Virus record (IMG/VR): IMGVR_UViG_3300028640_000004
Coordinates: 28,200-92,199 of that record
Reading direction: 5' to 3' (one strand)
DNA from: a virus
Lineage: Duplodnaviria; Caudoviricetes
DNA length: 64,000 nucleotides
Shown one piece after another: positions 3,001 to 60,966 of the stretch. The notes beneath the pieces were generated by a model. It was not told where the DNA came from. It searched no databases and saw nothing but the letters and a program-made list of their open reading frames with translations. Numbering within the stretch: the first letter of the stretch is position 1; each line of letters opens with the position of its first letter. A program made the translations under genes and the position numbers.

Positions 3001-6000
3001 ACAATAAGATTATTGGAAAATTAGAGAATGATGCAGAAGATTTCTTTGGTGTTAATGCTGACGAGATAGTTGGAGAGCATAGGTTATTACAGAACCTAGA
3101 AGATGCAGACGAAATGATTATGCGTATTACAGATAAGGATAATATAAATAAGGATTCATATGCTTTAGATTTAAAGAAACTAGCTATGCTTCAGGATATA
3201 GAAGAAGTCTTTAATATAAATGAACTATATAGTCTTAGCGATATCTTAGAAGTTAAAAATAAAACAGATGTTCATAGCGCATTAACATTACTGAATGAGG
3301 TAGTTACTTCAAACGATGAGGCAAAACTAGAAATGTTACATAACAATCTTCTTGAGTTCCTTAAGCCTGAAAGTATGGAGGTTGATCAAGTAAAGGATAT
3401 TAGCTTTAAGGTATGGTACAATAGACACGGTAAAAAACTATTTAAGGATGAAGTAACCTTTGAAGATCTAAATAAGGAAAAGAACTTAAAGAAATTAGAT
3501 AAAGCTAGAGATAATTATGCTAAGTTCAGAGACCTTAATATTCCTAAACCTAAAGAAGTATGGTTTGAGTTTATGAAGGAAAACAATAAAGCCTTCAATA
3601 ACCAGTTTGGAAGCAAGAGCATTAAAGATCCTGAAGTAAATGAAGCTTATCTTGATTACATAAAAGGTGACCCTAGTGGGGTAGGTAAGGCTTATGAGAA
3701 AAGTTCTGAACTTACGGTTGGAGCTGAAGAAGTAGGCCCTCAATACAATGAAGATGGAATTGAAAAAGGACGTGGTCAATTAGAAGAAGCTTATCTTATT
3801 AAAAGAATTAAGGAGATTTTAGATACCACCAAGGAAACAACTAGCTTAGATGTATTGGGAGATATAGGAATTAAGATAGGACATAAGACATCTAAAAGAA
3901 TTAGTAAAGATGGCTTTCTTGGTAGGGAGCACAAGGTTGATCTTGCTGCTGTCTATGACAATAGAGTAAATTCAATAAGTGAATTATCTTTAGTTGCAAA
4001 GAAACCTCTTGAAGATATTCAATTCAAGTCTACTTTAGAAGGTGGTCAGATTTATAATTCTGTATATGGAAAAGATAAGACGGATAATGTTATTTACATA
4101 GTTCCTACTATAAAAGATAAGATTACTGAGGTCGGAGAATTAAAACCAAGACAAGACTTTAAAGAAGGTGACCTTGTTATAGTTAATGAGACTAGAGAGA
4201 AATTAATACCAGAGAAAGTTGATTGGGAGGATTATGAGTTTGATAATGAAGAAATAAAACTAGAGGTTATTAGAACTGGAAGAATGTCTTATACTGAACT
4301 TAATGATGTTTATTATAAGATTCCATATACAGATGCTATTAAGCTTAATACTATAGATAAACTCAAAGAAAGGTTAAGTAATATATATAACAAAATATCT
4401 TCTGGAAAAAAGCCATTACCATTAGATTTTAAGTTTATAAAAACAGGAACAAAGGCAGAAATGGATTATGTTAATAGCGTTATTACAGACATTAAGAAGT
4501 TGTATTATTCTGATATATACGTAAAAGGAAAATCTGACAAAGAAATACAAGAAGGACTTTCTAATATTTCTAAGAACGTTAATCAAAAGATTAATGACTG
4601 GTCTTATATGAAGAAAGATATTCTTAAAAAGAATAAGAAGAATCTTCTTAAATTAACTGATCCTAACATTGAAAAGAAAAAGGAAGTTATTGATAACGAA
4701 ATAAATGAATCATTATCAAAAGAAAGAAATAAGGATGATTTATATAATCTATACAAAGTAGATAAACAAGGAAACTTAGAACATCTTAACAAGGCTACAA
4801 TTAAAGACATTAATTCATTAGTAAAAGAAAATATTGATGAAACAAAGTCTTATCAGGTTATAGACAGTCTCTATGACGAGAGAAGTAAGCCTGAAAATAT
4901 CTTTGGTGATGCTCCTGTAATAGAAACTATTAAGCCTCCTAAGTGGGATTATAAGAGTGATATTATTACAGATGAGTTGCCTATTACTAATGAGTTATCT
5001 TTCCTTAAGATTACTGATAAAGGAAACGAATTAATTACTATACAAGGAAGAGATAAGATCTTCTTTAAGAATACCGTGGAATCTGATAGAGCTGCTGGTA
5101 ATAACAGAGGTTTTGGAAAACCTAAGATAGAGAATACTTCGTATAGATTTGAAACTGTTAAAAGTCCTGATGGTTCAAAAGAAGTACATGTTGAGAAGTA
5201 TATAATTATAGATGTTATATCTGAGACACGAGAAAAGGAATTGATTGCAAGTATTAATAAACTTAAAAAAAGGCCGAAGAGTAATAAGAAAGAGATAAGT
5301 AGATTAGAGCGTGATCTTAAAGCTGAATTAGAATGGCGGGATGCGATCAGAGAAAAGGTTGATGGGTTAACTATACCTACGTATGAAGTTGATTCATTAT
5401 CAGATGTAAGCATAAACGACATTGATACTATTAAGGGAATAAGAGGACACTTCTTCAATAGAGAAAAAGGAGTTACCTTTAGTAATAACAAGAAGTTTAA
5501 TTCATCATTCTTTAATCGCAACATTTTAACTGAGGTTGAATCACAGACAATAAGGGGAATAAATAAGACATATAAAGTAATTCAAGATACTCTTAGGGCT
5601 AAGAGAACTCCTGGTTATGCCGGTATATTCCCTAAGGCTGATCCTGCTTTTACAGATGTGCTTGGTATGGAAGATAGTATTAAGAAACTTACTAGTTCCA
5701 TCTTAAAGTATGAACAGAAAGTTAATCTAGAAGATGTGCTAGTTGGTTTGATGTTTGAAGAAAAGAACTTTGTTAAACCTTGGAAAGATAAAGAGGTATT
5801 GGTACTGGTTAACAAAGAACAAAGAGGAATTACAAAAGAGTTTAGAGATGCAGTTGATGAACTTGAAGGTACCGATACAGTGTTTATATTTCCTACAGGA
5901 GAGCTATCTAATATAGAGATAGCAATGCAGGAGTATATTGTAAACAAAGGACTTAAAGTAGAGAGGCGAGCTATAGAAGATAGACCAATTATAAAACCGA

Positions 6001-9000
6001 AAGAAGAACCTATTGAAGGAACTCCAGATGTAATAAAGCAACAAGATGAAGTACTTGCCAGGGCTAGTTATGTTCTATATATGGGTAATCCTTATAAGGA
6101 TTTACAGTCTATATCAGAAGTATCTAAAGTACTTAAAGATGCAAGAGAAGCTGGTACTATAGTCTACTCTACCAATAAAGCAAAGAAAGAACAGCTTAAA
6201 GCTATCAAGGCTTTCTTTGGAGATCCAGAGACAACTAGAGCAGCCTATAAGATGCCAAGCCTTCCATTAAGATTAGAGCTTAAGGAAGGAATGAGATCTG
6301 TAGAAGAGGCTACTAGAAAGATTATTCTTGCTTCGATGAGAAGAGAATTTAGGGAGGAGTGGTATAAATGGAAGCAAGCTGCAATAGATCAATATAGAGA
6401 AGAGTTGGTAAACAGGTTTAGACAGACCGGAGCTTTCTCTGATAATAAAAGGAATCTTGCTATAGCCGAACAGATAGTAGAACTCAAAGTCAAAGAGCTT
6501 GAGAAACAACTTAAGGGTATTGAAGATAATATACTTAAATGGAAAGGGTCTCAACCTATAACAGATAAGATACTTATCAAGACAAAGAAAAATATCTTAC
6601 AAAATTTATATAAGGATATAGCTAGAGAGAAGAAAGATATATCTGCATTTAATGGTTATCTTAAGACTGGTGTACTTCCATCGAAGAAATATGGACTTGT
6701 AAGAGATTCTATTCTATTAATGAGAAAGGCATTGGGTATACCAGGACATCTACAGAAAGCATTTATTACTTTCGTCTTAGTATTAAGACCGGCTTGGTAT
6801 ATAAACAATGCTAACGAAGATCACTTCAAACAGTTCATTATAGAAAAAGATCTTAAATCATTAGCTAAATCTTACTCATTGACAGTTAAGCTATATGCTA
6901 AGTTCGGTAAGTTAATAACTAAGAACGCCTTAAAGGATACTGCAAATCTTAAGAAAATATTAGCAGATGATCTTAAGAAACAGTATAAGCTAGGCTTAAT
7001 AAGCAAGGAACAATTCAAGCTTATGACAAAGCAACTTGAAGGTGATTCCTTTGATGCATTACAAATATTAAGAGCAGAGACGGGGAAAGAAGCTAAAGAT
7101 GTTGCTGACTTAATAGATAAGCAGAAAGATTTTATAGTCATTAATGGTGTTACAATTACTAGGAGTGATATAGAATATATGCTTAACTCTGGTGTTATGG
7201 AAACATTTACCAGTGCATCTGAAGCTAAGTTAAAAAAGAACATTGCTTCTGATCAAAGAAGTGGATTTGGAAATGTGATAGCTAAAGCTAGTGAGTATCA
7301 GGATAATCTTAAGTTCTTTGCTAGTGAAACAGAAAGAATGAGAAGAGGAGTCGTATTACTTAGGATATTACAGAAACAAACACAAGATATGGTTGCTGGC
7401 GCAGTCTTTGATCCTACTACAGGAAGATCTATTATTAAAGATTTCTTCTTTGATTATAGAGATCTTAATAGGGCAGGAATGTTATTCAGAAAGATATTTC
7501 CATTCTTTAGTTATAGTTACTTCTCAGTAGTATTGTACCTTAAACTGCTTTATAAATATGAGGGGATCAGAGCCTTTAATGCTGGTGTTGCTTTACTTGA
7601 GGTATGGGAAGCTAATACACAAGAACTCTCAGATGAATATAAGGATAGATGGGCTATGCAGTTAGGTGGTAAAACTTACTTAGTTAAGATTCCTTTATCT
7701 GCTTTCGAAGTAGTTAAGTTATTCCAAGATCCAGTAGGAGCTATAGAGAAGTCTGTTGAGAATCCATTTAAGAGTCTGATGGGATTATCATTCGGTCCAT
7801 TCGTTGGAACTGCCGTTGAAGAGATAACAGGTAAAGATTACTTTACTCCGAGTAGGATACAATTAAGAAAACTTGGATGGTCTCATGATGAGATAGAGGA
7901 AGAGATTAAGAAATATAATAAAGAGAAGAAGGATGAATCTTTAATTGATAAGAGTTGGAACTTAATGAGTTCTATAGTTCCACAAGCTTCGTTAATTAAT
8001 GACCTGTTCTTTAGAGCTGATGTAGGATATGAGCAAACAGGCAATCCTTTAAAGAGTAAGAAGTTTAGAGAACTTACTAAGTTCTTCGGTATAAATATCA
8101 TGACACTTACAGACGTAGATAAGCTTAGGAATAAGATATATTCTATGCCACCTTCTGTAAGGAACTTCTACTTAGATAAAATAAAGAAAGAAGATCCTGA
8201 ATTATATGATGAGTTCAATAGGCAATCTAGAATTGGATTCGAATTAAATCTTTATAATGAAGGTAAATCACCTAATGAGATTAGAGCGGCTGTTATGAAG
8301 AGAGATGTACAGACTAAGTACTATGAAAAAGAAGCAGAGAAGAATGGCTCTGGTGATGAATGGTTAAGAACTAACAGTCAAGCTAGGGATATAATGGAAG
8401 AGGTTTGGAAAAGTTCACCTACTAATACTCGTAAGGAGTTCAAAGAAAAAGAACGACAGGCTAAGGAAACTCAGAGAATGATTACTGAGATTATCGAAGA
8501 GACCTTACCCAGTAATATAACTGAAAAGAATCTAAGGAAGTATCAGGCATTAGGCGCTGAGTATACTGAACCTATTAATAAGGAAGAGTTGATTAGAGAT
8601 GTTACTAATAAAGGATTAGATGTCGATCAGATAAATAATTTAATAACTTATAAGTGGAAAGATAAAGGAGTTTCTCTTATTAGGAAAGACTTATTAGAAC
8701 ATAAGAAGCAAGAACTTGAACAATACAGAAGCTTAAGTCTTAGTGAAAAGGAAGCATTGAGCTCTGAAGACAAGTCTTACTATACTACTAAAGCTGTCAT
8801 AGATAAGTATTTACCTAAGGAAGGTGACTCAGAAGAAGAGCAAAAGAAAGCATTTGAGAAATACAGAGAGGCTTTTAATAAATACTTTACTCCTGAACAG
8901 AAAGAAAGATATCTAGCATCATTACCAGAAGCCCAGAGGATTCTTAGAGAAGCTAATGAAGCTTATATAAATGCATGGGGTGAACTTCTGAGTGGAGAAG

Positions 9001-11204
9001 GTAATGGAGCTGATTACTATGATGTATTCAATGCAATGCCACAATGGTTTAAAGCATTCTATTTTTCAGCACATCCAGATGCTGCAATATATTATCCTTT
9101 AGCTTCAGAAAGACAGAAGAGATTCAATGAGATATACGAGAAGGAGTCTCAGGGGTTTAATATGTCTAAGGAAAGAAAGGCTTTGAATGATTGGTTCTGG
9201 TCTAATTCAGCTCAAGTAAAAGCATGGGAAAGGGATAAGCCTGATAAGATCAAATACTTAAGAATGCAAGAGAAGTTTATGGATTCTGTTGATCCTGATA
9301 AATATTATTCTTCTCTACTTAAGACTGATCCATGGTACTTGAATGAATACTTTAAGAAGAATCCTGATGCTAAAAAGTTTGCATACATCCTAGCTACATT
9401 AGAAGAATATATGGAAGATAGTGATGATGAGAAGTACTCTAAGCTATTAGAAGAGTTTGCTAATAGTGAAGCTGGTAAGTTATACGCAGAGAATCATCCT
9501 ATTGCCGGAGGACATAATAAGCTTGAGTATAGATTGATGTGGAATAACCTGATTAAGAACTCTCAACCAGGAGAGTACTATCAAGGATTCTATAATCAAC
9601 CAGATTGGTTCAAGAGATATTGGTTCAATGGTAACCCAGAGGCTGAAAAGTATTATGGATTCAGGGCTGAACTAGCGAAGAAAGAAGGCGCTGCTTATGA
9701 TGAATACTTATGGGCTGATTATAATAAAGAAGCAAGAGAAGCTTGGTTCAATCATAAACCTGAAGATAGAGACTATTATACTAACTTTAAAAAAACTCTA
9801 AGTACATTCAGGAACACTAACAACATGTTCGGGTATTATGATTTCATACTCAATCCTAAGAATTCTAAGTATCTAGTTAGATGGTCTAATAATGACCCTA
9901 AGAAAATTAAAGCGGCTCAATATTCCAAACAGTACTATGCACTACCTGCTAAGACATGGGAAGATCAAAAGGCTAGAATAGCTTGGATAGATAATAATAA
10001 ATTCTTAAGGGAATGGTGGGATAAAGATAAGACTCCAGAAGAAATAGAGTTATCTAAGAAGGCAGATATCTATAGAAGAATGAAGTATGATATTGAATCA
10101 ATAGGATCTGGTTCTGATTACTATATGAAGTGGAGAGAATTATCTGCTAAGAGAGAGCAATATCTTAAGAACAATCCAGACCTTAATGAATACCTCAATA
10201 AGTCGTATGAAGATAATAACTTAGAGCCGACTAATATCCAGAAGAAGTTAGCTATCTATAATAAGATTAAGGATGATGATAAGAAGCGGGAATATCTTAA
10301 GGAGAACAAGGATCTATCGGATTACTTCTTAGATGGAGTTCCTGAGGGTATTAGACAGATAAGAAAATTACAAGAGAAGTACTTTGCTATAACACAGGAT
10401 AAGTATTCTAATGCAGATGATTACTACGTAGCAAGAAATAGATTCCTTAGTAAGCATAGAGAATTACAGGAGTATTGGGATGCTATGTCACTACCCCCTT
10501 CCGCATTCATACATAAGGAGAAGTTTGATGAATGGCAGAAGAAGCTTAATAAAGTACTGAGGTATTATGACGGTGTTACTTCTGATAGTCTTAATGATTC
10601 TATGAGGTTATCTATCCAGAGAATCAATTCGTACATGGGGGTAGAGAATTCTCCAGAGGCTGAGTGGTTCTGTAACAAAGTGTACAATGCAGCTATGAGT
10701 AAGTGGATAGATTTAATGGGATCTAATAAGTCTATAGGCATGTTCTTCTTTAGACAATTGCCTTCATGGATTAGAGCAAGATACTTTGAAAAGAATCCTA
10801 ACTCTAAGATGTTAAAAGGATACTCATTAGGAGATTGGTTTGCTACTGGTATTTCTAAATACAACAGTAGTAATCCAGGAGTTAAGTGGGCCTTAGAACA
10901 ACAGAAGAAATATGGAGCTGGAGGTATTCCATTCTCTATAAAGAAACAAGTAGAGAGGTATCTTAAGGGAGCTGGTATATGGGAAGACAGGAGCGGGTGG
11001 GATTCTGCTAAGTGGAATAAATGGCAGATTTCTAGAGCCGCATATCTTAATGGATTAAAGGAAAAGGATATAGAGAATAATCCATTGATAAGAAAGGAGT
11101 TATATAGGGCGATCACAGGAACGATAAGGCCTATTAACCCTAAGGTGTATAATAAGAAAGTAAGGTGGGAGCAAGTAGTAGACGTGTCTTTGACACGTCT
11201 ATGA
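3..11204 (+). CDS. Giant polyvalent virion/ejection-type protein (probably 5'-truncated) with DEDDh exonuclease and SLOG-like domains and C-terminal helical repeats
   Basis: 3733-aa ORF running from the window edge. Motifs VLDIETTG / GHNLKEFD / HDSKQD (~1464-1995); SLOG-like pattern ~5790-6175; repeated F..P.W...YF..NP motifs near the C-terminus; lies upstream of tail genes. Confidence 0.7.
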   Translation: MPFWMRGTINDFIDKAGFSAIQKAFLKSEELYSYFGKLYDDINYEPLKRKEWSIKDNEYKTLDWNQYLDEKGEVQLKTSVTKEEVIKNKIKSLIVSPHTATDADWDALKKFDIYPADLKDAINKLFIRIARGDDVSKLIIERNDILSELVGIIDPNTVHEKALRNAGMFSIEKEKLLKHLPNDLKEKVINCSEEYHKLIANREFDEITKNYAVAELISRGYSTEIINEAEKVIHLYDKFIHQMREKALSIKDVITIHISNAIDIRLDDTVKELNLELIDEKVIPRHLQVVIDDKVVMEFEPGTQKTEIIEYLGRLNFNQKKGTVNSEEILDGNDTVDLLRKLYKEKINSKGSSDIASLFEEFRLLSENEKIVGDELLDRFIAYIETYRSLLSSDINNFSELLAISNKLIESQKTNAKNDFRNRVLNKLNNTTKGGAGVFGDIKNIDENLAKDLYRVTELDDIGLEHLTNSLIKKFNNKKYLKVKEHNKILVLDIETTGLDVGKDRMLSIGWSIIDKDGNIIKDSTKSYLIKPDEDTREIVTSGAADAALAKNGLSLDKLDVEGNPDLSTVLKELNNDIKDCEAVMGHNLKEFDLQVLRNEYSKAEMKNNFENKDVLDTLHIINPAKAKGKKSLEELYRAYIRDDYVETHDSKQDVLDLIDLYKRAKETGDLSKSVTSEVSNTIRNNVSKLSLVVRSLDIEGGLPVGNIGHYAATTSKKNIEEIRKVKADNLFTQVQEFLSQDIVSVVKELNRSRKMMSDIFNKQKHYKKRDSLKNFPNSDVSLKDLMYEKTSIIREKKAELDELNEGLKVAKPNDKEALGLKIKQLKEELNKLLDERVESKLFKESDGIVSVPMNYGTTAEEVAKLKELYDQGNRFIVLVPYAFRRFQGVRIPAIDALNTIGAVEEFSMSKKGGKAYDFYVADIKNNLLMPGDYAELDKVLASMAEADIKKLDLLTKAYVLARPSKRTALIKIYRAYFEDLKALRARGVLDTSDNKLKAYNKIIGKLENDAEDFFGVNADEIVGEHRLLQNLEDADEMIMRITDKDNINKDSYALDLKKLAMLQDIEEVFNINELYSLSDILEVKNKTDVHSALTLLNEVVTSNDEAKLEMLHNNLLEFLKPESMEVDQVKDISFKVWYNRHGKKLFKDEVTFEDLNKEKNLKKLDKARDNYAKFRDLNIPKPKEVWFEFMKENNKAFNNQFGSKSIKDPEVNEAYLDYIKGDPSGVGKAYEKSSELTVGAEEVGPQYNEDGIEKGRGQLEEAYLIKRIKEILDTTKETTSLDVLGDIGIKIGHKTSKRISKDGFLGREHKVDLAAVYDNRVNSISELSLVAKKPLEDIQFKSTLEGGQIYNSVYGKDKTDNVIYIVPTIKDKITEVGELKPRQDFKEGDLVIVNETREKLIPEKVDWEDYEFDNEEIKLEVIRTGRMSYTELNDVYYKIPYTDAIKLNTIDKLKERLSNIYNKISSGKKPLPLDFKFIKTGTKAEMDYVNSVITDIKKLYYSDIYVKGKSDKEIQEGLSNISKNVNQKINDWSYMKKDILKKNKKNLLKLTDPNIEKKKEVIDNEINESLSKERNKDDLYNLYKVDKQGNLEHLNKATIKDINSLVKENIDETKSYQVIDSLYDERSKPENIFGDAPVIETIKPPKWDYKSDIITDELPITNELSFLKITDKGNELITIQGRDKIFFKNTVESDRAAGNNRGFGKPKIENTSYRFETVKSPDGSKEVHVEKYIIIDVISETREKELIASINKLKKRPKSNKKEISRLERDLKAELEWRDAIREKVDGLTIPTYEVDSLSDVSINDIDTIKGIRGHFFNREKGVTFSNNKKFNSSFFNRNILTEVESQTIRGINKTYKVIQDTLRAKRTPGYAGIFPKADPAFTDVLGMEDSIKKLTSSILKYEQKVNLEDVLVGLMFEEKNFVKPWKDKEVLVLVNKEQRGITKEFRDAVDELEGTDTVFIFPTGELSNIEIAMQEYIVNKGLKVERRAIEDRPIIKPKEEPIEGTPDVIKQQDEVLARASYVLYMGNPYKDLQSISEVSKVLKDAREAGTIVYSTNKAKKEQLKAIKAFFGDPETTRAAYKMPSLPLRLELKEGMRSVEEATRKIILASMRREFREEWYKWKQAAIDQYREELVNRFRQTGAFSDNKRNLAIAEQIVELKVKELEKQLKGIEDNILKWKGSQPITDKILIKTKKNILQNLYKDIAREKKDISAFNGYLKTGVLPSKKYGLVRDSILLMRKALGIPGHLQKAFITFVLVLRPAWYINNANEDHFKQFIIEKDLKSLAKSYSLTVKLYAKFGKLITKNALKDTANLKKILADDLKKQYKLGLISKEQFKLMTKQLEGDSFDALQILRAETGKEAKDVADLIDKQKDFIVINGVTITRSDIEYMLNSGVMETFTSASEAKLKKNIASDQRSGFGNVIAKASEYQDNLKFFASETERMRRGVVLLRILQKQTQDMVAGAVFDPTTGRSIIKDFFFDYRDLNRAGMLFRKIFPFFSYSYFSVVLYLKLLYKYEGIRAFNAGVALLEVWEANTQELSDEYKDRWAMQLGGKTYLVKIPLSAFEVVKLFQDPVGAIEKSVENPFKSLMGLSFGPFVGTAVEEITGKDYFTPSRIQLRKLGWSHDEIEEEIKKYNKEKKDESLIDKSWNLMSSIVPQASLINDLFFRADVGYEQTGNPLKSKKFRELTKFFGINIMTLTDVDKLRNKIYSMPPSVRNFYLDKIKKEDPELYDEFNRQSRIGFELNLYNEGKSPNEIRAAVMKRDVQTKYYEKEAEKNGSGDEWLRTNSQARDIMEEVWKSSPTNTRKEFKEKERQAKETQRMITEIIEETLPSNITEKNLRKYQALGAEYTEPINKEELIRDVTNKGLDVDQINNLITYKWKDKGVSLIRKDLLEHKKQELEQYRSLSLSEKEALSSEDKSYYTTKAVIDKYLPKEGDSEEEQKKAFEKYREAFNKYFTPEQKERYLASLPEAQRILREANEAYINAWGELLSGEGNGADYYDVFNAMPQWFKAFYFSAHPDAAIYYPLASERQKRFNEIYEKESQGFNMSKERKALNDWFWSNSAQVKAWERDKPDKIKYLRMQEKFMDSVDPDKYYSSLLKTDPWYLNEYFKKNPDAKKFAYILATLEEYMEDSDDEKYSKLLEEFANSEAGKLYAENHPIAGGHNKLEYRLMWNNLIKNSQPGEYYQGFYNQPDWFKRYWFNGNPEAEKYYGFRAELAKKEGAAYDEYLWADYNKEAREAWFNHKPEDRDYYTNFKKTLSTFRNTNNMFGYYDFILNPKNSKYLVRWSNNDPKKIKAAQYSKQYYALPAKTWEDQKARIAWIDNNKFLREWWDKDKTPEEIELSKKADIYRRMKYDIESIGSGSDYYMKWRELSAKREQYLKNNPDLNEYLNKSYEDNNLEPTNIQKKLAIYNKIKDDDKKREYLKENKDLSDYFLDGVPEGIRQIRKLQEKYFAITQDKYSNADDYYVARNRFLSKHRELQEYWDAMSLPPSAFIHKEKFDEWQKKLNKVLRYYDGVTSDSLNDSMRLSIQRINSYMGVENSPEAEWFCNKVYNAAMSKWIDLMGSNKSIGMFFFRQLPSWIRARYFEKNPNSKMLKGYSLGDWFATGISKYNSSNPGVKWALEQQKKYGAGGIPFSIKKQVERYLKGAGIWEDRSGWDSAKWNKWQISRAAYLNGLKEKDIENNPLIRKELYRAITGTIRPINPKVYNKKVRWEQVVDVSLTRL

Positions 11205-14527: not shown

Positions 14528-14620
14528 TTTGGAGCTTAGTGGGGCGGAGTACCACTCTTAATCTCTATATAAAGAACTTATATACAGGAAAGCAATCGGG
14601 TTCGACTCCCGACTCCAAGC
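14528..14620 (+). ncRNA. tRNA-like element with non-canonical extended anticodon arm
   Basis: Acceptor TTTGGAG/CTCCAAG; T-arm TCGGG-TTCGACT-CCCGA; D-like stem AGTGG/CCACT. Confidence 0.6.
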
Positions 14621-42707: not shown

Positions 42708-42709
42708 AG

Positions 42710-42780
42710 TCGGAATACCAGGAATCGAACCTGGGCCGCAGGTACCCAAGACCTGAATACTGCCGTAACACTTTATTCCG
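42710..42780 (-). tRNA. tRNA-Pro(TGG)
   Basis: CGGAATA/TATTCCG; CAGGT-CTTGGGT-ACCTG; CCAGG-TTCGATT-CCTGG. Confidence 0.9.
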
Positions 42781-42781
42781 G

Positions 42782-42890
42782 CATAGGAGGTAGGATTCGA
42801 ACCTACAAATCAATAAGGCATAGGAACTAAGACTTGCACTTAGATCAATCGTTTTGGAGACTGTTGCTTAGCCAATTAAGCTACTCCCAT
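42782..42890 (-). tRNA. tRNA-Trp(CCA)-like gene with degenerate anticodon stem and duplicated 3' half
   Basis: ATGGGAG, D-arm GCTT/AAGC, loop CTCCAAA; two tandem T-arm plus acceptor segments. Confidence 0.6.
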
Positions 42891-43004
42891 GTACTTCTTC
42901 AACTCTATCTTACACCATCTTTTCTTAGAATAATATAGACGGAAGTGTAATTTACTTCCTTTCCATTTCTTCATTCTTAATTTATTTCTATTTCGTTTAG
43001 TCAT
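42876..43004 (-). CDS. Small basic protein MTKRNRNK... (42 aa)
   Basis: Fills the gap in the RNA operon; K/R-rich. Confidence 0.3.
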   Translation of the reverse strand: MTKRNRNKLRMKKWKGSKLHFRLYYSKKRWCKIELKKYMGVA

Positions 43005-43091
43005 ATACACCATGTGGGTATCGCTAATCCACTCATCTACTAGAGACGCTACGAGCAGGTGACGCTGCGTAGTAATGCACCTAGGCATATG
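43001..43091 (-). ncRNA. Unidentified four-way-junction RNA between tRNA genes
   Basis: Three hairpins closed by a terminal stem; G-U pairs favour the minus strand. Confidence 0.45.
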
Positions 43092-43163
43092 CTTCAGATG
43101 ATGGGCTCGAACCACCGACATCCTCCTTAACAGGGAGGCGTTCTACCACTGAACTAATCTGAA
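43092..43163 (-). tRNA. tRNA-Asn(GTT)
   Basis: TTCAGAT/ATCTGAA; CCTCC-CTGTTAA-GGAGG; GGTTCGAG T-loop. Confidence 0.92.
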
Positions 43164-43169
43164 AGAATG

Positions 43170-43488
43170 TGGACATGATGGGATTGAACCCATGTCCAGT
43201 ATCTACTCATACAAGAATCTACATAGCATAGATTGTTTTAAGAAACAAACAAAAGATTTTCACTACTATACCTCCACCAGCTTTTTACAGCATGTGATCT
43301 TTTTATGATACCAACCTAATCGATCACTAACTAGGTCAGCACAACTTAAGCAGCTACTGTCTGAAATAAAGAATCAACAGTAACGTTAGTTGGAGCGAAA
43401 TGGTTGTTTACACCTATGGTTTCACCTTAAGGAAGTGAGCCTTGCTATGCACTTATACTCATATAATACTGTCGAAACTTACATGCCC
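43170..43488 (-). ncRNA. ssrA: tmRNA; tag (A)VNNHFAPTNVTVDSLFQTVAA
   Basis: 5' GGGCATG..TTCGAC; 3' GAC-ATGGG-TTCAAT-CCCAT-CATGTCC-A with G3-U70; tag frame 43411-43346 after ATAGGT, ending VAA-stop. Confidence 0.9.
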
Positions 43489-46143: not shown

Positions 46144-46216
46144 GTCTAAGTAACCAAGTTGGTCACGGTGGGCGACTGAAAATCGTCATATCTCTGTTCG
46201 ATTCAGAACTTAGACA
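46144..46216 (+). tRNA. tRNA-Phe(GAA)
   Basis: GTCTAAG/CTTAGAC; GGCGA-CTGAAAA-TCGTC; TTCGATT T-loop. Confidence 0.88.
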
Positions 46217-46221
46217 CAAGG

Positions 46222-46325
46222 ATAGTACCTATAACGTAGGAGGAAACACAGGTTCGAATCCTGTCTCCTAGAATACTAGGACGTAATACAGCTGGCGAGT
46301 ACTCCTCCTGTGTTATGGGTATTAT
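46222..46325 (+). ncRNA. Circularly permuted tRNA-like RNA (YrlA/Y-RNA-like topology)
   Basis: 23-bp terminal stem enclosing a T-arm, a loop-closed acceptor stem and a D-arm, in that order. Confidence 0.75.
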
Positions 46326-46343
46326 TTAAAACAAACAAACAAT

Positions 46344-46589
46344 ATGCATATAGAAGTAGTAGTTAATCTAAGCAAGAGAGTAATGGATCAGCTTATTAGA
46401 GCGATAGACGATTCATGTAAAAGGGTTATAATAGATGAGTGGACTATAGATATAGAGCTTGGAGATACTAGTCCTGAGAATATTTCTGCGTGGATGTCAG
46501 AAGAAAGGAAGCTAGAGTTCAAGAAACGTATGGATGAGCAGTTTCCTGAATATCAGTTCGAAGTTGTAAGTATAAAGTTAAATATATAA
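46344..46589 (+). CDS. Hypothetical protein
   Basis: 81-aa ORF with A-rich leader. Confidence 0.55.
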   Translation: MHIEVVVNLSKRVMDQLIRAIDDSCKRVIIDEWTIDIELGDTSPENISAWMSEERKLEFKKRMDEQFPEYQFEVVSIKLNI

Positions 46590-46613
46590 CTAAATTAATT
46601 AACACAATTAAGT

Positions 46614-47159
46614 ATGATTCTTTCAGACAAATCAATAGAAGTAGCAATCAAAGATAAGAGTATCGTAATAAAACCATTCGACAAGGAGTCTATCGGATCT
46701 GCCTCTTTAGATCTTTCTCTCGATAATGTAGTACTATACTATATAAAAGATAATAAGGTTATTGATACTAAGAATGTAGAGAAGACCTGTACCTTAAGTA
46801 GGATAGAGTTTACTGATGAAGAGCAGATCATACTGCAACCAGGTCAATTCATTCTAGGCGCTACTAATGAAGAGGTTGAGTTACCTAATGATATTGCTGC
46901 TAGGATAGATGGTAGATCTAGCTTAGGAAGATTAGGATTAGCTATTCACTCTACAGCTGGACATATAGACCCAGGATTCAAAGGTAAGATCGTATTAGAA
47001 ATGAGCAATGTAGGAATCAAACCAATCGCTCTATATCCTAAGATGAAAATCTGTCAGTTGGTATTTGAGAAGTTAGATATACCTACTACTAATCCTTATA
47101 ACAAGAAGAAAGGTGCGAAGTATATTAATGTTAAGGAAGTAGAAGGTAGTAAGTTGTAA
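46614..47159 (+). CDS. dcd: dCTP deaminase
   Basis: MILSD, ASLDL, GRSSLGRLGL..H.TAG.IDPGFKG.I.LE. Confidence 0.93.
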   Translation: MILSDKSIEVAIKDKSIVIKPFDKESIGSASLDLSLDNVVLYYIKDNKVIDTKNVEKTCTLSRIEFTDEEQIILQPGQFILGATNEEVELPNDIAARIDGRSSLGRLGLAIHSTAGHIDPGFKGKIVLEMSNVGIKPIALYPKMKICQLVFEKLDIPTTNPYNKKKGAKYINVKEVEGSKL

Positions 47160-47180
47160 GCCACATTAGTGGCATTTCTT

Positions 47181-47344
47181 GGGGGGGAGTGAACTTGCAC
47201 AGAACAAGTCGACATTGGATTTGCTAATAATCTTAAGCTCTTATATAGTAAGCTTCTAGTGTCAGTGAACGTAAGGTAAGCGGATTATACTTAAGATATA
47301 TCCGAAAGAATAACGTTTAGGTGGCTCGAAGCCATACCCTCCCA
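47181..47344 (+). ncRNA. Oversized (164-nt) tRNA-like cloverleaf
   Basis: GGGGGGG/CCCTCCC-A acceptor, T-like arm GTGG-CTCGAAG-CCAT, two long internal arms. Confidence 0.6.
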
Positions 47345-47353
47345 CATTTATAT

Positions 47354-47425
47354 TTCAAGATCGTCTAATCGGCAGGACCAGAGCCTTTGAAGCTCTTAAT
47401 CTTGGTTCGAATCCAAGTCTCGAAA
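47354..47425 (+). tRNA. tRNA-Gln(TTG)
   Basis: AGAGC-CTTTGAA-GCTCT; CTTGG-TTCGAAT-CCAAG; one acceptor mismatch. Confidence 0.88.
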
Positions 47426-47437
47426 CAAAACAAACCT

Positions 47438-52455: not shown

Positions 52456-52848
52456 AACGCGGAACGTTAAATGACTAACACGCAAGATCTTCTCTGTAAG
52501 AGAAAGAGCGGAACGTAAATGATTAAAGCGCAGAATGAATCCTAATATGTTACTTACTAACACGATCTGTGAGGTATACCAGGTATAGTGATTATACTAG
52601 GATAATAGATCTTTATAAAGAAAAGAAGAGGTTGATAGAGGCGCATGAGCTAGGCGCGAAGCGCAGCTGATTGGGACGTGCATTTAGTTGTACGTCCTTT
52701 CGTTGTAGGGCGACGGTGGGGTATATCCGGTTGTGATGAAGTTACTAGTTCATCGCTTTGTTGTGATGATTTGGCGAATTAGGCGGAATACTTCATGTTG
52801 GTTGGGTGTGTTGTTAGTTTTAGTTGGTGGTATTATACTTACTTAGGC

Positions 52849-53070
52849 GCGGGGATACCATACTATACTTATATATATACCCTATATGTACTCATATATG
52901 TGCGGATACCATACACTTCTTCGTGCCGGATATATGTACTCATATATGTACTCATATATGTGCGGATACCATACACTTCTTCGTGCAAATACCATACTAT
53001 AACAATATATATACCCCAACACTTCTTCGTGCAAATACCATACTATACTTATATATATACCCCCTTGGGG
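52849..53070. repeat. Complex nested direct repeats in the non-coding region
   Basis: ATACCATACTATACTTATATATATACCC x2, ATATGTACTCAT x3, CACTTCTTCGTGC x3. Confidence 0.8.
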
Positions 53071-53177: not shown

Positions 53178-53333
53178 ATGACACCATATATGATGGTGCT
53201 GATATTAGTAATCATACTAATAGCCGGCAATATATTTAGTCTATGTATTGCTAAGAACAGATCAGATAAGATCTTCTTAGTATGTATACTAGTACTTAAT
53301 ATATATATCTTAGTAACTATACTTAGTTATTAG
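53178..53333 (+). CDS. Small two-TM peptide (51 aa, not in ORF track)
   Basis: MTPYMMVLILVIILIAG...; AT-rich leader; TAG stop. Confidence 0.4.
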   Translation: MTPYMMVLILVIILIAGNIFSLCIAKNRSDKIFLVCILVLNIYILVTILSY

Positions 53334-54057
53334 GAGAGCGCCCAAGGACTATGCTTTAGTCGGAGCATAAGTCCTTGACAGAAGATTTATCTTCTATTAT
53401 TATTTAAGTAATAAATATGAAGAGACGAAGATATCTTCGTTATAGTAATCACAATGCTTACCGAAACGCCCGCAATTGGTCACCGGAATAGGGGCTAGTG
53501 ATATGTAATATAGTTATCAATTTCGCTTCTAGTATTTATATATATATAGACGTCTAGGAATGGATCCCCACTTTGGATAACATTTGTATCTATGTATATA
53601 TAACTTAATAGTTAGTAGAAGAGGCTGATACATATCAGTAATTTTTTGTCTTAATAAAAAGATATATTAATAGAGCGGCTTAGATCGTTCTTTATATCTT
53701 AATAATAAAAATAATAGCGGCTAAGTTTAGAGTAAAGAGCCGGGAACGTTGAGTTATCAACATAAACAGGCCTTTTAAGTACTCGGAAGTATGCAGTACT
53801 AATAGGGTGTTAGCCCGCTCTAGTCTTTCCTAAGCCGCCTCTAATAATATGATTATATATATATGTATATATATAGGTATATGTATAATGTTCACCTATA
53901 TATATAGTAAGATGCAGTCAGGCGGAAGCTTGATCAGTAGTTTGTGGGATGAAAATCCCAAGAAATAAGGCTTTGTAAGTAGTAAGGTTAGTGCCATTTA
54001 TGTTGATTTATCAACGTTTTAGCCTTGGCGTTATGTGTGCGTACGTTAGTGGACTAA

Positions 54058-54123
54058 CTGGACAGAAACTGGACAGAAACTGGACAGAAACTGGACAGAA
54101 ACTGGACAGAAACTGGACAGAAA
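54058..54123. repeat. 6 x 11-bp tandem repeat CTGGACAGAAA
   Basis: Six exact copies. Confidence 0.95.
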
Positions 54124-54398
54124 ATATAACTGAATAGCTATATAACCTATATATTCTATATATGTATGTACTGTATAGTATATTATATATATAAGAACCT
54201 TCTATTTAGAGGGTTTTTTGTTGATTAGAGGGCTTTTTAGGGCTTAATAATAGTAAGAATATAGAGGGGTTTTTATAGGCGCTTCTATATCTTGTTATAT
54301 AGTGGTTATACCGTAGGTTAACAGACACCTAAACAAAAGAGCTGGGCTTAGGACTTAGTCGAGTCCATATAAGCTATTATTAATTAATATATAATTAT

Positions 54399-54590
54399 AT
54401 GGAGACATATAAAAGTATAAAGAAGAGGGCCGCGAGGCTCTCTAAAGTTCTTTGTCCTGATTATAGAGGACAGAGAGAAGCTAGGCAGAGGCGAAGATAT
54501 CTTCGTTACTGCTTAGTAGTAATGATACTTAGTCTTGTACTAAGTATTGTTACTATAGGTATCCCATTTGTATGGGTGCCTAGTAAATAG
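54399..54590 (+). CDS. Early small protein with C-terminal TM segment
   Basis: 63 aa; TAG stop. Confidence 0.5.
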   Translation: METYKSIKKRAARLSKVLCPDYRGQREARQRRRYLRYCLVVMILSLVLSIVTIGIPFVWVPSK

Positions 54591-54648
54591 ATAGAGGCGG
54601 CCTTAGTTGGTCGAAGGCCGTCTTAATAATAAATATAAAATATAAAAA

Positions 54649-55041
54649 GTGAAAATTATTTCTTTTTATTCTGCATTACTTAGAGCGCAAGCTTGTAGTG
54701 ATGCGGGCAAAGACCTTAACTCTGTTAGAAATAATGGAGTTAAGTGCCTTGAGTTAGGTTACTCTCTCAAGGATAAATATATAAAAGAGGCGATTGCTAA
54801 TATTCCTAGCAATTGTTTCTTTTACATAGAAAGAACTATCGACTTTGGAGGGAGTCTCATTATTTATTTTGAGACCCCCCAAGGTCAGATAAGCTTTCAT
54901 AGCTTTGGAGAGTATTCTCCAAAGCTAGAGAAGCATTTCCAGTTCACTCATATTGAGTGGAATGGAGATGTGAATGGAAGCAGGAAGACCTGCAAGAGAA
55001 TAGAAAGAAGATTCAACTTGCAGGTCTTCAAAAGGTCCTAG
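54649..55041 (+). CDS. Hypothetical early protein (IYFETPQGQISFH motif)
   Basis: 130 aa; GTG start; TAG stop. Confidence 0.6.
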   Translation: MKIISFYSALLRAQACSDAGKDLNSVRNNGVKCLELGYSLKDKYIKEAIANIPSNCFFYIERTIDFGGSLIIYFETPQGQISFHSFGEYSPKLEKHFQFTHIEWNGDVNGSRKTCKRIERRFNLQVFKRS

Positions 55042-55394
55042 TGAAATTGTTACTAGGACTTATTGCTCTTTGACCCGTTGAGGTCTACCCTTTTTAAGGG
55101 CATTAGGATATTTAATATCCTTTTAAATAAAACTTAATATAAGTCAACGCTTCTATTGAGATGTGCCTCCCCTTTGGGGTTACCTAATAGGCTAGTGAAA
55201 GATATATTCTTTATAAGATATAGGCTTTCAAAAGATTAACAGGCTTAAGCTGTTGATTATAAATATAATAGAGTTGTACATACTCTATGTCGATTTAAAA
55301 TGTATATTAGAGGCGGCCTTACTCGCAAGTGAGGCTAGCTTCTTTATAAATAAATTAATAAGAGGCGAAAATATCTTCGTTTCTTTAAAGAAAA

Positions 55395-55871
55395 ATGCAA
55401 AACAAATTTTTTATTATCAATATTAACAACCAATGGGTTGTTAATGAAAAATTAATCTTTGAGGATAATTGCTTCAAAGATTATTGTATCTCTCTGGGGA
55501 ATGATTCCCCAGAGGGTGCTTTAAGGTTTAGCTATAAAGAGCTAAACCAATTTTTGGTAAACGTTAAAACGTTTACCAATCATTCAATAAATAGTTTTAA
55601 AATCTTCGAAGTTTATGGCTTCGAAGTAGATATTAGAGATGTTCCTATAAGGGACATCACTGACATAGACAACTTTATTAGAAGGAACTATCGCGAGGTT
55701 CCTAAAGGATCTGGATTAAATATCCAGATTACTGTCGTGAGTAATCGACCAGATTACGTAGGCAATATCAGTCTATACACTTCGGTGTATAGGCCTAAAG
55801 ACCTTTATAGGGTCTTTAAGAAAGAACTAAAGACATCAAATGTCTTTAGGATATTTTTCAAGATAGTTTAG
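55395..55871 (+). CDS. Hypothetical early protein
   Basis: 158 aa; TAG stop. Confidence 0.55.
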   Translation: MQNKFFIININNQWVVNEKLIFEDNCFKDYCISLGNDSPEGALRFSYKELNQFLVNVKTFTNHSINSFKIFEVYGFEVDIRDVPIRDITDIDNFIRRNYREVPKGSGLNIQITVVSNRPDYVGNISLYTSVYRPKDLYRVFKKELKTSNVFRIFFKIV

Positions 55872-55956
55872 TTTGTAGGTTAAACTACACCTATAAAAAA
55901 GAAAGTGAATAGCAACTGGTCGATGCTATTTTTTATTATAAATAATTGATAAAGAG

Positions 55957-56172
55957 ATGTTCTTTGTTGATCTAAAGCTTGTATCAGCTTGGATTAATGA
56001 GTATCAGTCAGGTCATATTGACTATATTCAACTTCAAGAAGAGCTGATAGAGCTTCTTAATACCGAGAAAGTTCTTATCGTTAGGAATGAGAGCGGTGTT
56101 AAGATAGATACAGCTATGTTTTACATAGTTGTTAGACCGACTAATACCTTTATAAAGACTAAAGTTTACTAG
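55957..56172 (+). CDS. Hypothetical early protein
   Basis: 71 aa; TAG stop. Confidence 0.55.
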   Translation: MFFVDLKLVSAWINEYQSGHIDYIQLQEELIELLNTEKVLIVRNESGVKIDTAMFYIVVRPTNTFIKTKVY

Positions 56173-56269
56173 TCTTATGAGGCATTCGGTGGAGTGTAGC
56201 TAGCTCTATTACTCAATAGCTATTATTAAATTAATTAGAGACGAAGATATCTTCGTCTCTTCACATATT

Positions 56270-56461
56270 ATGACAATAAAAATAAATAAGTTAGAAGACA
56301 ATAGAAGTGATGAGCAGATTAAACAAGATAATAGAGAAATCTTTGCTCTTGATTATATTACAGAGCGTCTTGAGCAAGAGGCGCTTAATCCAAATAAGGA
56401 GGAGTATCTGGAGAGATTAGAAAAAATAGCATCCTTATTAAGGGATTTTGAAAAGGAATAG
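56270..56461 (+). CDS. Hypothetical early protein (paralogue of 57212)
   Basis: EQIKQDNREIFALDYITERLEQEALN shared. Confidence 0.65.
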   Translation: MTIKINKLEDNRSDEQIKQDNREIFALDYITERLEQEALNPNKEEYLERLEKIASLLRDFEKE

Positions 56462-56466
56462 TATCC

Positions 56467-56500
56467 TGTCTTTAGAGCGGCAGACGTTAAAGAACCGCTC
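56467..56500 (+). promoter_or_regulatory. H-type pseudoknot 5 nt after a TAG stop (also 56773-56806, 57150-57184, 57550-57583)
   Basis: S1 TGTCT/AGACG, S2 GAGCGG/CCGCTC, L3 TTAAAGAA; covariation among copies. Confidence 0.7.
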
Positions 56501-56551
56501 AATTATAAATAGGGACCTGAAGGTCTAGCCAGAGGAATACTGGTATAAATT

Positions 56552-56767
56552 ATGTTAGTAGATAAAAATATTAATAGTGCTTTTAATCAAGCTAGATTAG
56601 CTTGGTCAAGAGTACAAGAAAAGAAAGAGGCTAAAGAATTAGAGCCTCTTTATCAATTGCGTGATAGGTATTACGCAATGAAAAATAATGTTAAGGTCGA
56701 CAATAAGAAAGAAATGCTAGAAGCTATGGCTGATAAGCTAGAGGCTAATGGCATTATAGTAGAATAG
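56552..56767 (+). CDS. Hypothetical early protein
   Basis: 71 aa; TAG stop. Confidence 0.55.
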   Translation: MLVDKNINSAFNQARLAWSRVQEKKEAKELEPLYQLRDRYYAMKNNVKVDNKKEMLEAMADKLEANGIIVE

Positions 56768-56832
56768 CTTATTGTCTTTTGAGCAGTAGACGTTAAAGAA
56801 CTGCTCAATAATTAAAGTAATATAAAAAGAAT

Positions 56833-57144
56833 ATGTCAAAAGAAAGATTTAGCTTGAGTTTTAGAGAAGATCATTATCTAATGTTAGATAATGATAGAGA
56901 AGTAACTCCATGCCTATGGTATGAGGCATTGGAGTTTATTATAAGCTTATCTCATAGAGGATTTAAATCTTCTAGTGAGAAATTAAACTCTCTCCTTGAG
57001 GACTATCAGAGGAGAGAGGTTGCTATTGAGCGTGACGAACTCAATGGTAATTACCTTGCTCGTGAAGAGCATGGTATTGATTTTCTCGAAAGAGAAATCA
57101 TTGAGCTAGTTGATAGTGAAGTTAATATAGACTTCACTAAATAG
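56833..57144 (+). CDS. Hypothetical early protein
   Basis: 103 aa; TAG stop. Confidence 0.55.
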   Translation: MSKERFSLSFREDHYLMLDNDREVTPCLWYEALEFIISLSHRGFKSSSEKLNSLLEDYQRREVAIERDELNGNYLAREEHGIDFLEREIIELVDSEVNIDFTK

Positions 57145-57211
57145 TAGATAGGCATTTGAAGCATTGGCCTTTAACTAATGCTTCATATAATAAGTTAATA
57201 TAAATAAATAT

Positions 57212-57544
57212 ATGACAAACGAAATTATAAAATCTTTAGAAGATAATAGAACTAATGAGCAGATTAAGCAAGATAATAGAGAAATCTTTGCTCTTGATTA
57301 TATTACAGAGCGTCTTGAACAAGAAGCGCTTAACGTTAATCGAGAACGATATATTAATAACTTAGAACGTATCGCTAAGTTATTGTCTGATATGGAAAAG
57401 GAATCTAATCCTTCCATATCTTGCTTTGTTGAAGAAGATGGAAAGCTTTTTGTTCCTAATAAGGATGGAAAGCTAGAAGAGTTTGTAGAGATGCTTGAAG
57501 AGTTTGAAGGAAATGAAGACGATATAAAGGATCTTCCTTTCTAG
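57212..57544 (+). CDS. Early protein with acidic SSB-like C-terminus (DDIKDLPF)
   Basis: Paralogue of 56270 with a C-terminal extension. Confidence 0.65.
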   Translation: MTNEIIKSLEDNRTNEQIKQDNREIFALDYITERLEQEALNVNRERYINNLERIAKLLSDMEKESNPSISCFVEEDGKLFVPNKDGKLEEFVEMLEEFEGNEDDIKDLPF

Positions 57545-57647
57545 TGATCTGTCTTTTGAGCAGCAGACATTAAAGAACTGCTCAATAATTAAATAAAGGC
57601 TTTATGCCTAGCCAGTAGAGAACTGGTATTATAAAAGTAATCCTAAA

Positions 57648-60620: not shown

Positions 60621-60966
60621 GTTTCCGCGTTAGTAAGTGTTGGGTCCATCTACGATAGATATACTGCAACTAATGGTGCCAATGTGTTGTATCTTGGTCT
60701 TCCCGCTGTATAGTGGTGATACAACAATAATAAAATAAAGAGCTAACGCTCTGCCTAGTAGAGAACTAGGATTATATATGAAGAATAGATTACCTAATGA
60801 GGATGGAGACTCATAAAGCAGACGGGACTGTAGAAGAGTGGTGGTTTCACAACATAGATCATAGCTTAAAGAGCTTCTTAGATATGGCCGACAATCTTAC
60901 AGAAGACGAAGTTAATATCATCGCTGCTAATACAGCGCTTATTAAAATGAAAAGAGATAGGATCAT

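Follow-up and report, generated by a model that had tools for sequence, protein, structure and literature searches.

Repeated H-type pseudoknots between small genes of a tailed phage: likeness to coremin and possible insulation of cistrons

Background

To our knowledge, exoribonuclease-resistant pseudoknots are known only from eukaryotic RNA viruses. The coremin motif, an exoribonuclease-resistant RNA (xrRNA-C), and its Watson-Crick variant xrRNA-WCC occur in beny-, cucumo- and other RNA viruses (PMC6546385, PMC10520033, PMC10321173). Coremin reads GUC-CGAA-GAC-G-UUAAACUAC, followed by a second hairpin, and is modelled as an H-type knot in which the first stem (S1) is the GUC/GAC hairpin, the second stem (S2) joins the loop to the spacer end through three pairs, and the adenosines of the GUUAAA spacer lie on the minor groove of S1 (PMC6546385, PMC10520033, PMC10321173). 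Disrupt-and-restore mutations have confirmed the pairs of S1 and, for the Watson-Crick variant, two of the three in S2; Xrn1 and scanning ribosomes are stalled and -1 frameshifting is stimulated, the frameshift screen having been made in E. coli (PMC6546385, PMC10520033, PMC10321173). Here we describe six elements of comparable topology from the DNA of a tailed phage (IMG/VR record IMGVR_UViG_3300028640_000004), of which we analysed a stretch of 64,000 nucleotides (nt), the last 64 kb of one 92,199-bp contig and hereafter the window.

Similar layouts are found elsewhere. Retroviruses possess recoding stimulators, such as the pseudoknots of gag-pro in mouse mammary tumour virus (MMTV) and simian retrovirus 1 (SRV-1) and of gag-pol in murine leukaemia virus (MuLV), and in T4-like phages promoter-early stem-loop (PeSL) cassettes form repeated structured spacers between small early open reading frames (ORFs). 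Stem-loops located within 15 nt 3' of stop codons, among them repetitive extragenic palindromic (REP) elements, reportedly trigger transfer-messenger RNA (tmRNA) action and mRNA decay (summarised in PMC5009743).

Architecture of the six elements

The six elements were found on the coding strand only, with the coordinates, arms and spacers that a preliminary description of the window had given. They are listed below in the order stop, spacer, S1, first loop (L1), S2, second loop (L2), S1', third loop (L3), S2'.

54314 to 54344, plus strand: C1, type C; TAGGT TAA CAG AC ACCTA AACAAAAGAG CTG.
55876 to 55906, plus strand: C2, type C; TAG TTTG TAGGT TAA ACT AC ACCTA TAAAAAAGAA AGT; starts 4 nt after the TAG at 55869-71.
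56467 to 56500, plus strand: A1, type A; S1 56467-71/56482-86, S2 56475-80/56495-500; TAG (56459-61) TATCC TGTCT TTA GAGCGG C AGACG TTAAAGAA CCGCTC; starts 5 nt after the TAG of a 63-aa ORF (56270-56461).
56773 to 56806, plus strand: A2, type A; TAG (56765-67) CTTAT TGTCT TTT GAGCAG T AGACG TTAAAGAA CTGCTC; starts 5 nt past the TAG of a 71-aa ORF (56552-56767) and ends 26 nt ahead of the ATG at 56833.
57150 to 57184, plus strand: B, type B; TAG (57142-44) TAGAT AGGC ATTT GAAGCATT G GCCT TTAACT AATGCTTC; starts 5 nt past the TAG of a 103-aa ORF and ends 27 nt ahead of the ATG at 57212.
57550 to 57583, plus strand: A3, type A; TAG (57542-44) TGATC TGTCT TTT GAGCAG C AGACA TTAAAGAA CTGCTC; starts 5 nt past the TAG of a 110-aa ORF and ends 64 nt ahead of the ATG at 57648.

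The three types have one H-type topology and a U-rich first loop in common, while their stems are different. The shared layout consists of an S1 of 4-5 bp, a U-rich L1 of 3-4 nt, an S2 of 3-8 bp, one or two junction bases and an A-rich L3 of 6-10 nt, which in all three types takes the form U-W-A-A-M-K-A-A. A descriptor that combines the topology with this L3 motif matched four sites of the 92-kb genome (56467, 56773, 57150 and 57550), all on the plus strand and within 1.1 kb, and yielded three unique matches on both strands of 1.16 Mb of distant phage DNA. H-type descriptors without the L3 constraint were uninformative (about 170 matches per strand). The three type A copies are repeats of 78-81% identity and for this reason are not independent evidence within the window.

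C1 is situated in a leader without a preceding ORF, 54 nt ahead of the block's first gene (ATG at 54399); behind it comes the hairpin GGACT-TAGTCG-AGTCC (54351-54366). C2 is likewise followed by a hairpin, together with a T-run (about 55908-55935). Hairpins behind type C knots or TAG stops share the loop T(A/G)GTCG (54351-54366, 54594-54624 and 55909-55929, and positions 958-980 of the related contig L073), and some of them continue into a T-run and are thus terminator-like.

The elements could not be assigned to a catalogued class. Rfam 15 returned no family match at gathering or permissive thresholds, preQ1-I riboswitches, frameshift elements and ribozymes included. Scans for sigma-70-type promoters and for terminators detected nothing consistent inside types A and B; a TTGGCC-16-TATAAT promoter match in type B was dropped because it is lost in relatives. 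Types A and B were also rejected as intrinsic terminators, since they are followed by AATAATTAAA rather than by a T-run and are absent from the terminator scan. Single-stranded DNA elements of the integron attC or REP kind misfit in size and core sites, and no recombinase was seen. By eye, neither the UAG nor the spacer showed consistent pairing with the flanks; type B and certain other spacers are the only places that would allow UAG/CUA pairing.

Comparative evidence for the pseudoknot fold

The evidence for the knot is comparative and drawn from sequences. GenBank phages, searched with blastn, gave no match, and neither they nor IMG/VR contain a close relative; the relatives of the phage helicase, Bacteroides phage BS162P1 among them, are at most 48% identical and non-syntenic. 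Homologues of the 110-, 103- and 217-aa proteins were recovered only in about 12 near-identical metagenome contigs (L073, L074, L086 and L103-L110). A search of metagenomes with an exact 19-mer gave 24 matches, one of them a true relative.

In these relatives the S2 of type A occurs as GGGCGG/CTGCTC and GAGTGG/CCGCTC, in which pairing is kept via G.U. As the same positions would be C.A on the other strand, this suggests that the element acts as RNA of the plus strand. The S2 of type B is wholly replaced (GGTAGTT/AACTACC versus GAAGCATT/AATGCTTC). Type C gains three copies with the S2 ACG/CGT, so that both partners of each of its three S2 pairs have changed (CAG/CTG, ACT/AGT, ACG/CGT) with every cell paired, a result reached by 9 of 500 shuffles. 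Types A and B align column for column; 93% of S1 is paired, and in two S1 pairs both partners are altered. In type A alone, variation is too small and pair counts do not exceed those of shuffles. We interpret the six elements as real cis-acting RNA pseudoknots of the coding-strand transcript that presumably fold in vivo, which agrees with the preliminary description of an H-type family with compensatory changes and extends these changes to both stems. Decayed copies of type B were also noticed in L073: one has lost the 3' arm of S2, and the other retains only an extended S1 hairpin with UAGU pairing to ACUA (2342-2375; 38-78).

A wider search shows type A to be a member of a widespread, uncatalogued family of phage pseudoknots. 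The pattern GTCT-N8-13-AGACRTTAAAGAA was found at no fewer than 111 IMG/VR loci, and S2 has at least 5 bp in 23 of 81 unique copies (6.5 expected). The family consensus consists of GUCU, a U-rich loop, a variable S2, AGACR-UUAAAGAA and S2'. In 57 distinct copies (gapless, from IMG/VR and local contigs, those of the window included) S2 is 75% paired versus 43% in shuffles (0 of 500), and 111 cells are changed on both sides versus 45; no shuffle or slid register comes close. S1 was not imposed by the search for AGACGTTAAAGAAC, and GTCT was nevertheless present 8-13 nt upstream in 33 of 115 matches, against about 3 expected (12-fold). The three type A copies (56467, 56773 and 57550) carry every conserved letter, with the same loop lengths and an S2 that covaries in register. 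Types B and C have other S1 letters and fall outside the definition GUCU/AGAC-UUAAAGAA; their own patterns gave mostly chance matches in IMG/VR, and they therefore look like local, lineage-specific variants.

The phages that bear the family are unrelated, as are the genes next to it. One member is located in the Geobacillus phage phiOH2 (L158, NC_021784 15727-15827), in the gap that separates the scaffold gene from the next ribosome-binding site, which indicates that the family is not confined to one host group. As a cultured phage, phiOH2 also offers a convenient experimental system.

It is conceivable, though improbable, that only the plain S2 hairpin forms and acts as an ordinary intercistronic stabiliser or attenuator, the S1 complementarity being a conserved motif that serves some other purpose. 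For types B and C the nested fold is at least as stable as the estimated knot, the pair counts of type A by themselves do not beat shuffles, and S1 never varies in the wide family. A plain hairpin leaves unaccounted for, however, why three different S1 helices occupy the same columns of types A, B and C, and why GTCT accompanies AGACGTTAAAGAAC so far above chance. A conserved loop of 14 nt would also be unusual for a plain stabiliser, the missing T-run behind types A and B removes an intrinsic terminator as its function, and the S1 and S2 pairs of coremin are verified by disrupt-and-restore mutations. Because of the invariance of S1, its pairing rests on the comparison of types A, B and C in one lineage, on the co-occurrence of the two halves and on the coremin mutagenesis. 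The three S1 variants in this single genome thus provide S1 covariation that cannot be obtained from the wide family.

Comparison with coremin

The invariant half of the phage family, GUC..GAC-G-UUAAA, equals the coremin core. Coremin elements are defined by a stem of 3-5 bp in the first hairpin (hp1), a loop YGAD or YGNNAD, the 10-nt spacer G-UUAAACUAC, in which A16-A20 are essential, and a second hairpin (hp2) of at least 4 bp (PMC6546385). The S1 of type A (U-GUC-U/A-GAC-R) falls within this range of stem lengths, and its S2 begins with GAG/CUC as in a variant from a picorna-like virus. Both kinds of element are modelled as H-type knots with an A-rich loop on the minor groove of S1 and with S2 linking the loop of S1 to the 3' side. 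They are located in 3' untranslated regions or intergenic spacers just past ORFs, and type C parallels coremin in having a hairpin 1-7 nt downstream in four of five copies.

There are also differences. The type A loop comprises 10 nt (L1, the 5' strand of S2 and L2), contains no YGAD and resembles the Watson-Crick variant only in principle. The coremin spacer G-UUAAACUAC and G/A-UUAAAGAAC of type A match in part: the first six letters and the final C agree, and the three letters before the C differ. The phage S2 has 3-9 Watson-Crick pairs, in contrast to the three partly non-canonical pairs of coremin; L1 consists of 3-5 U rather than of 1 nt, and L3 (UUAAAGAA) is 2-3 nt longer. The phage host, moreover, is a bacterium without Xrn1. 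Type A thus appears coremin-like on paper but lies outside the coremin family as defined. No report linking coremin to phages was found in the literature searched, and Rfam 15 contains none.

Position relative to stop codons and genes

Four window elements (56467, 56773, 57150 and 57550) begin exactly 5 nt after a TAG. Within the lineage this holds for all type A and B copies located behind an ORF (10 of 10), which follow at least six unrelated ORF families. The wide family does not obey this rule, which is local to the lineage: among 47 copies, 20 have no ORF end within 45 nt upstream, and the others follow TAA (15), TGA (6) or TAG (6), with 3-40 nt separating stop and knot and, in many cases, a T-run of an intrinsic terminator in this interval. 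The preliminary description had considered that a role at termination would be contradicted if stop identity and spacing varied freely in relatives. Such variation is present across the family and absent from the lineage.

The downstream gene is the constant partner. Intergenic positions account for 41 of 45 family copies, and a same-strand ORF starts within 250 nt of 38 of the 45, mostly 40-65 nt away. Every copy in this phage precedes a gene, about half of them at 24-29 nt of A/U-rich unstructured sequence and the others at 50-65 nt with further hairpins; the type A and B knots of the window are 26-64 nt from the next ATG. An orphan copy in a relative (L073:1092) has intact, compensated pairing without an ORF or TAG upstream, and is located 29 nt before the same gene that A2 precedes in the window. 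This constancy suggests that the knot serves the RNA behind it and speaks against any device dependent on a terminating ribosome.

A second leader module was observed just before start codons (56509-56551, 57584-57647 and 60754-60770, as well as L073:3122-3169 and L104:5438-5551). It comprises a covarying hairpin H1, (T)AG, the conserved hairpin CCAG(T)-AGAGA-(A)CTGG and TAT(T)A; the H1 variants are GGACC/GGTCT, AGGC/GCCT, GACC/GGTC and GGACTCT/AGAGTTC.

Retroviral read-through signals are built in the same order, with UAG, a short spacer and an H-type pseudoknot. The resemblance to frameshift and read-through stimulators pointed out earlier was confirmed: type A shares with those of MMTV/SRV-1 and MuLV the H-type fold, an S1 of 5 bp, an S2 of 6 bp, one junction base, an A-rich loop of 8 nt and a similar 5-nt spacer, and coremin-type knots stimulate -1 frameshifting as well. 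The phage knots differ, however, in having no slippery heptamer (X XXY YYZ) before the TAG or spacer and no downstream, overlapping or otherwise open alternative frame. In-frame stops recur after 0, 0, 4 and 16 codons (TAG-TAG, TAG-TGA, TGA and TAG, respectively), ARAGORN finds no suppressor tRNA in the genome, and the long late ORFs are intact under code 11. A productive extension of the upstream protein is refuted, as the preliminary description had expected, and a recoding function in any form has, in our judgement, next to no probability.

A device coupled to termination would operate differently: the knot would contact the ribosome at the UAG and slow release or recycling, thereby tuning the output of early proteins, re-initiation, or A-site cleavage and tagging by tmRNA, possibly that of the phage itself. 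The strict spacing in the lineage across unrelated ORF families speaks for it, as do a spacer within the range of -1 frameshift signals, a tmRNA encoded in the window (43169-43488) and two copies with a second stop directly behind the TAG. The stem-loops with reported tmRNA effects provide a precedent (PMC5009743), for they too are stable structures a few nt past a stop; they are, though, plain hairpins of cellular genes, unlike a conserved knot that also occurs without a stop. Proposed in the preliminary description, such a device is not supported as a function of the family, given its varied stops and distances and the copies without a nearby ORF end. The orphan and the leader copy at 54314 have no preceding stop at all. 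Moreover, block ORFs that are followed by other structures also terminate in TAG, so the codon belongs to the block rather than to the knot, and TAG closes some late genes too. We consider this explanation unlikely.

Control of the next gene by a phage protein or small ligand that binds the knot is a further alternative, and a doubtful one; its models are the T4 gene 32 leader pseudoknot and, for type C with its terminator hairpin, a preQ1-I-like aptamer. The sequence of S1 and both loops is conserved far beyond what a passive structure needs, and around half of the copies are separated from the ATG by 24-29 nt of unstructured A/U. Type C even has the preQ1-I layout (a P1 of 5 bp, a P2 of 3 bp, C before the 3' strand of P1 and an A-rich tail) and a terminator-like hairpin. 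Yet the family occurs in unrelated phages beside unrelated genes with no candidate binding protein in common, and Rfam gave no preQ1-I match for type C even at E<=10, neither on 91 bases around 55876 nor on 3.6 kb.

Possible function as a directional roadblock

We tentatively favour, at slightly less than even confidence, the interpretation that the knots are directional roadblocks or insulators that protect the next leader and cistron. Docking of the A-rich loop on S1 would produce a compact, coremin-like knot that resists anything travelling 5' to 3' on the RNA: a 5'-end-dependent nuclease or a scanning endonuclease, a ribosome past its stop or, possibly, Rho. In a multi-gene early message, each knot would thereby insulate the leader and cistron that come after it and add to their stability. 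In this phage it lies close against the preceding ORF, starting where a terminating ribosome has its leading edge, and would thus stay folded during translation. With a 5-nt spacer S1 would begin about +12 from the P-site codon, where the mRNA channel opens, and the knot need not melt during termination. The same position of S1 is typical of frameshift signals. Close packing in a compact genome could hold the knot at the minimum distance of 5 nt. Nuclease-blocking structures at cistron borders, as suggested in the preliminary description, come close to this interpretation.

Several observations weigh against a roadblock. In a simple energy estimate the type A knot is about equal to the plain S2 hairpin, the type B knot loses to a rival plain hairpin extended by two pairs (G.U and G-C), and type C is unstable unless tertiary contacts are added. 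S1 is invariant across the wide family. The second hairpin that coremin needs for Xrn1 resistance is replaced by A/U-rich sequence behind types A and B. The roadblock interpretation accounts for the exact UAG+5 rule by close packing and leaves it otherwise unexplained. UAG is the only stop exclusive to release factor 1 (RF1) and the only one with a final G, and either property could matter for the rule. The probable host raises a further objection. A Shine-Dalgarno-like word is present in just 5 of the 92 genes (87 lack one) and the sequence upstream of starts is A-rich and G-poor, which is the pattern of Bacteroidota; on account of these start regions we infer that the host is probably a member of that phylum. 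A comparison of the phage GroEL with GTDB genomes as a host clue yielded no relative. Bacteroidota reportedly have no 5'-3' exonuclease activity and depend on RNase Y and RNase E/G (PMC10234816), in which case the blocked enzyme would have to be something else.

The reverse relation to a nuclease appears improbable to us. Here the fold would direct an enzyme of the RNase Y type, or RNase P by presenting its stacked helices as a tRNA-like minihelix, to cut at a fixed distance upstream and split the early message. RNase Y of S. aureus is said to prefer G at -1, and among the stops UAG alone ends in G. A double-stranded element 6 nt downstream can fix the place of an RNase Y cut (PMC5449607), and in Bacteroidota decay is described as driven mainly by RNase Y, with 5'P ends accumulating at start and stop codons (PMC10234816). 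Other spacers contain tRNA-like pieces such as a T-arm-like hairpin (14596-14612). The known guide, by contrast, is a 24-bp helix without a knot; the phage knots have no tRNA-specific features (T loop, CCA), no conserved base occurs at a fixed distance before type C or the orphan, and the member in a Geobacillus phage makes a reading specific to Bacteroidota unneeded.

Roadblock and termination could also be coupled in this lineage: the knots would be to DNA phages what xrRNAs are to eukaryotic RNA viruses, and would in addition dock on the ribosome while UAG occupies the A site, but this strikes us as highly improbable. Equally far-fetched would be its elaboration, in which RF1 and trans-translation by the phage tmRNA set the output and lifetime of early proteins and time their shut-off. 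The exact UAG+5 placement makes the interplay of terminating ribosome and knot directly testable.

If a coremin-like function were true, the presence of one conserved core in many DNA phages, from hosts as far apart as Geobacillus and a probable member of Bacteroidota, would point to a general, unreported means by which phages protect or insulate single cistrons, and one would have to ask what bacterial enzyme the knot stops.

Genomic setting

The contig has a G+C content of 34%, and almost all genes are on the plus strand. They include a terminase, a major head protein, GroEL, a helicase, five tRNAs and a tmRNA. Window positions 3-11204 are taken up by a giant ORF (about 4,940 aa; start at genome position 24584), whose sole Pfam-recognisable domain is an exonuclease of the RNase_T type. 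The block of small ORFs to which the knots belong (53.2-57.5 kb) lies downstream of non-coding sequence rich in repeats:

53178 to 57544, plus strand: 9-10 consecutive small ORFs, all with TAG stops, separated by structured spacers.

That the genes of this block are early is our assumption. Stop codons are arranged in blocks between 53178 and 62086 of the window: the 9-10 TAG ORFs are followed by six TAA ORFs with short AT spacers and by five to six TGA ORFs built of ATGA start/stop overlaps. Genome-wide, 78 TAA, 27 TGA and 28 TAG stops were counted, the latter including those of some late genes. Paralogy as the source of the common TAG was rejected, as only the 63-aa and 110-aa ORFs are related, and so was TAG as a general motif, with an enrichment in early spacers of just 1.7-fold.

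Gene order differs between the window and its relatives (L073, L074, L103, L104 and L107), and the elements are located at the joints; for this reason they may double as recombination joints, as proposed for PeSL cassettes. The likeness to the latter extends to repeated structured spacers among small ORFs at joints of gene content, but the phage elements have no detectable promoter consensus and form a pseudoknot rather than a terminator-like stem-loop.

Further repeats were noted in and before the block. In the non-coding stretch ahead of it, the 11-nt unit AACTGGACAGA is present in six tandem copies, together with several direct repeats of 20-45 nt (54045-54132 and 52839-53063); these look like iterons or promoter repeats. 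A palindrome, GACGAAGATATCTTCGTC, recurs 25-35 nt ahead of early start codons (53416-53442, 54482-54508, 55356-55382 and 56232-56258). The tmRNA at 43169-43488 (tag VNNHFAPTNVTVDSLFQTVAA) and the tRNAs Pro, Trp and Asn are encoded on the minus strand, opposite nearly all genes (42709-43488 and 46144-47426), while those for Phe and Gln use the plus strand. The T-arm-like hairpin at 14596-14612, GGGTTCGACTCCC, directly precedes the ATG at 14621 and shows weak matches to the tmRNA 3' end and to a tymovirus tRNA-like element.

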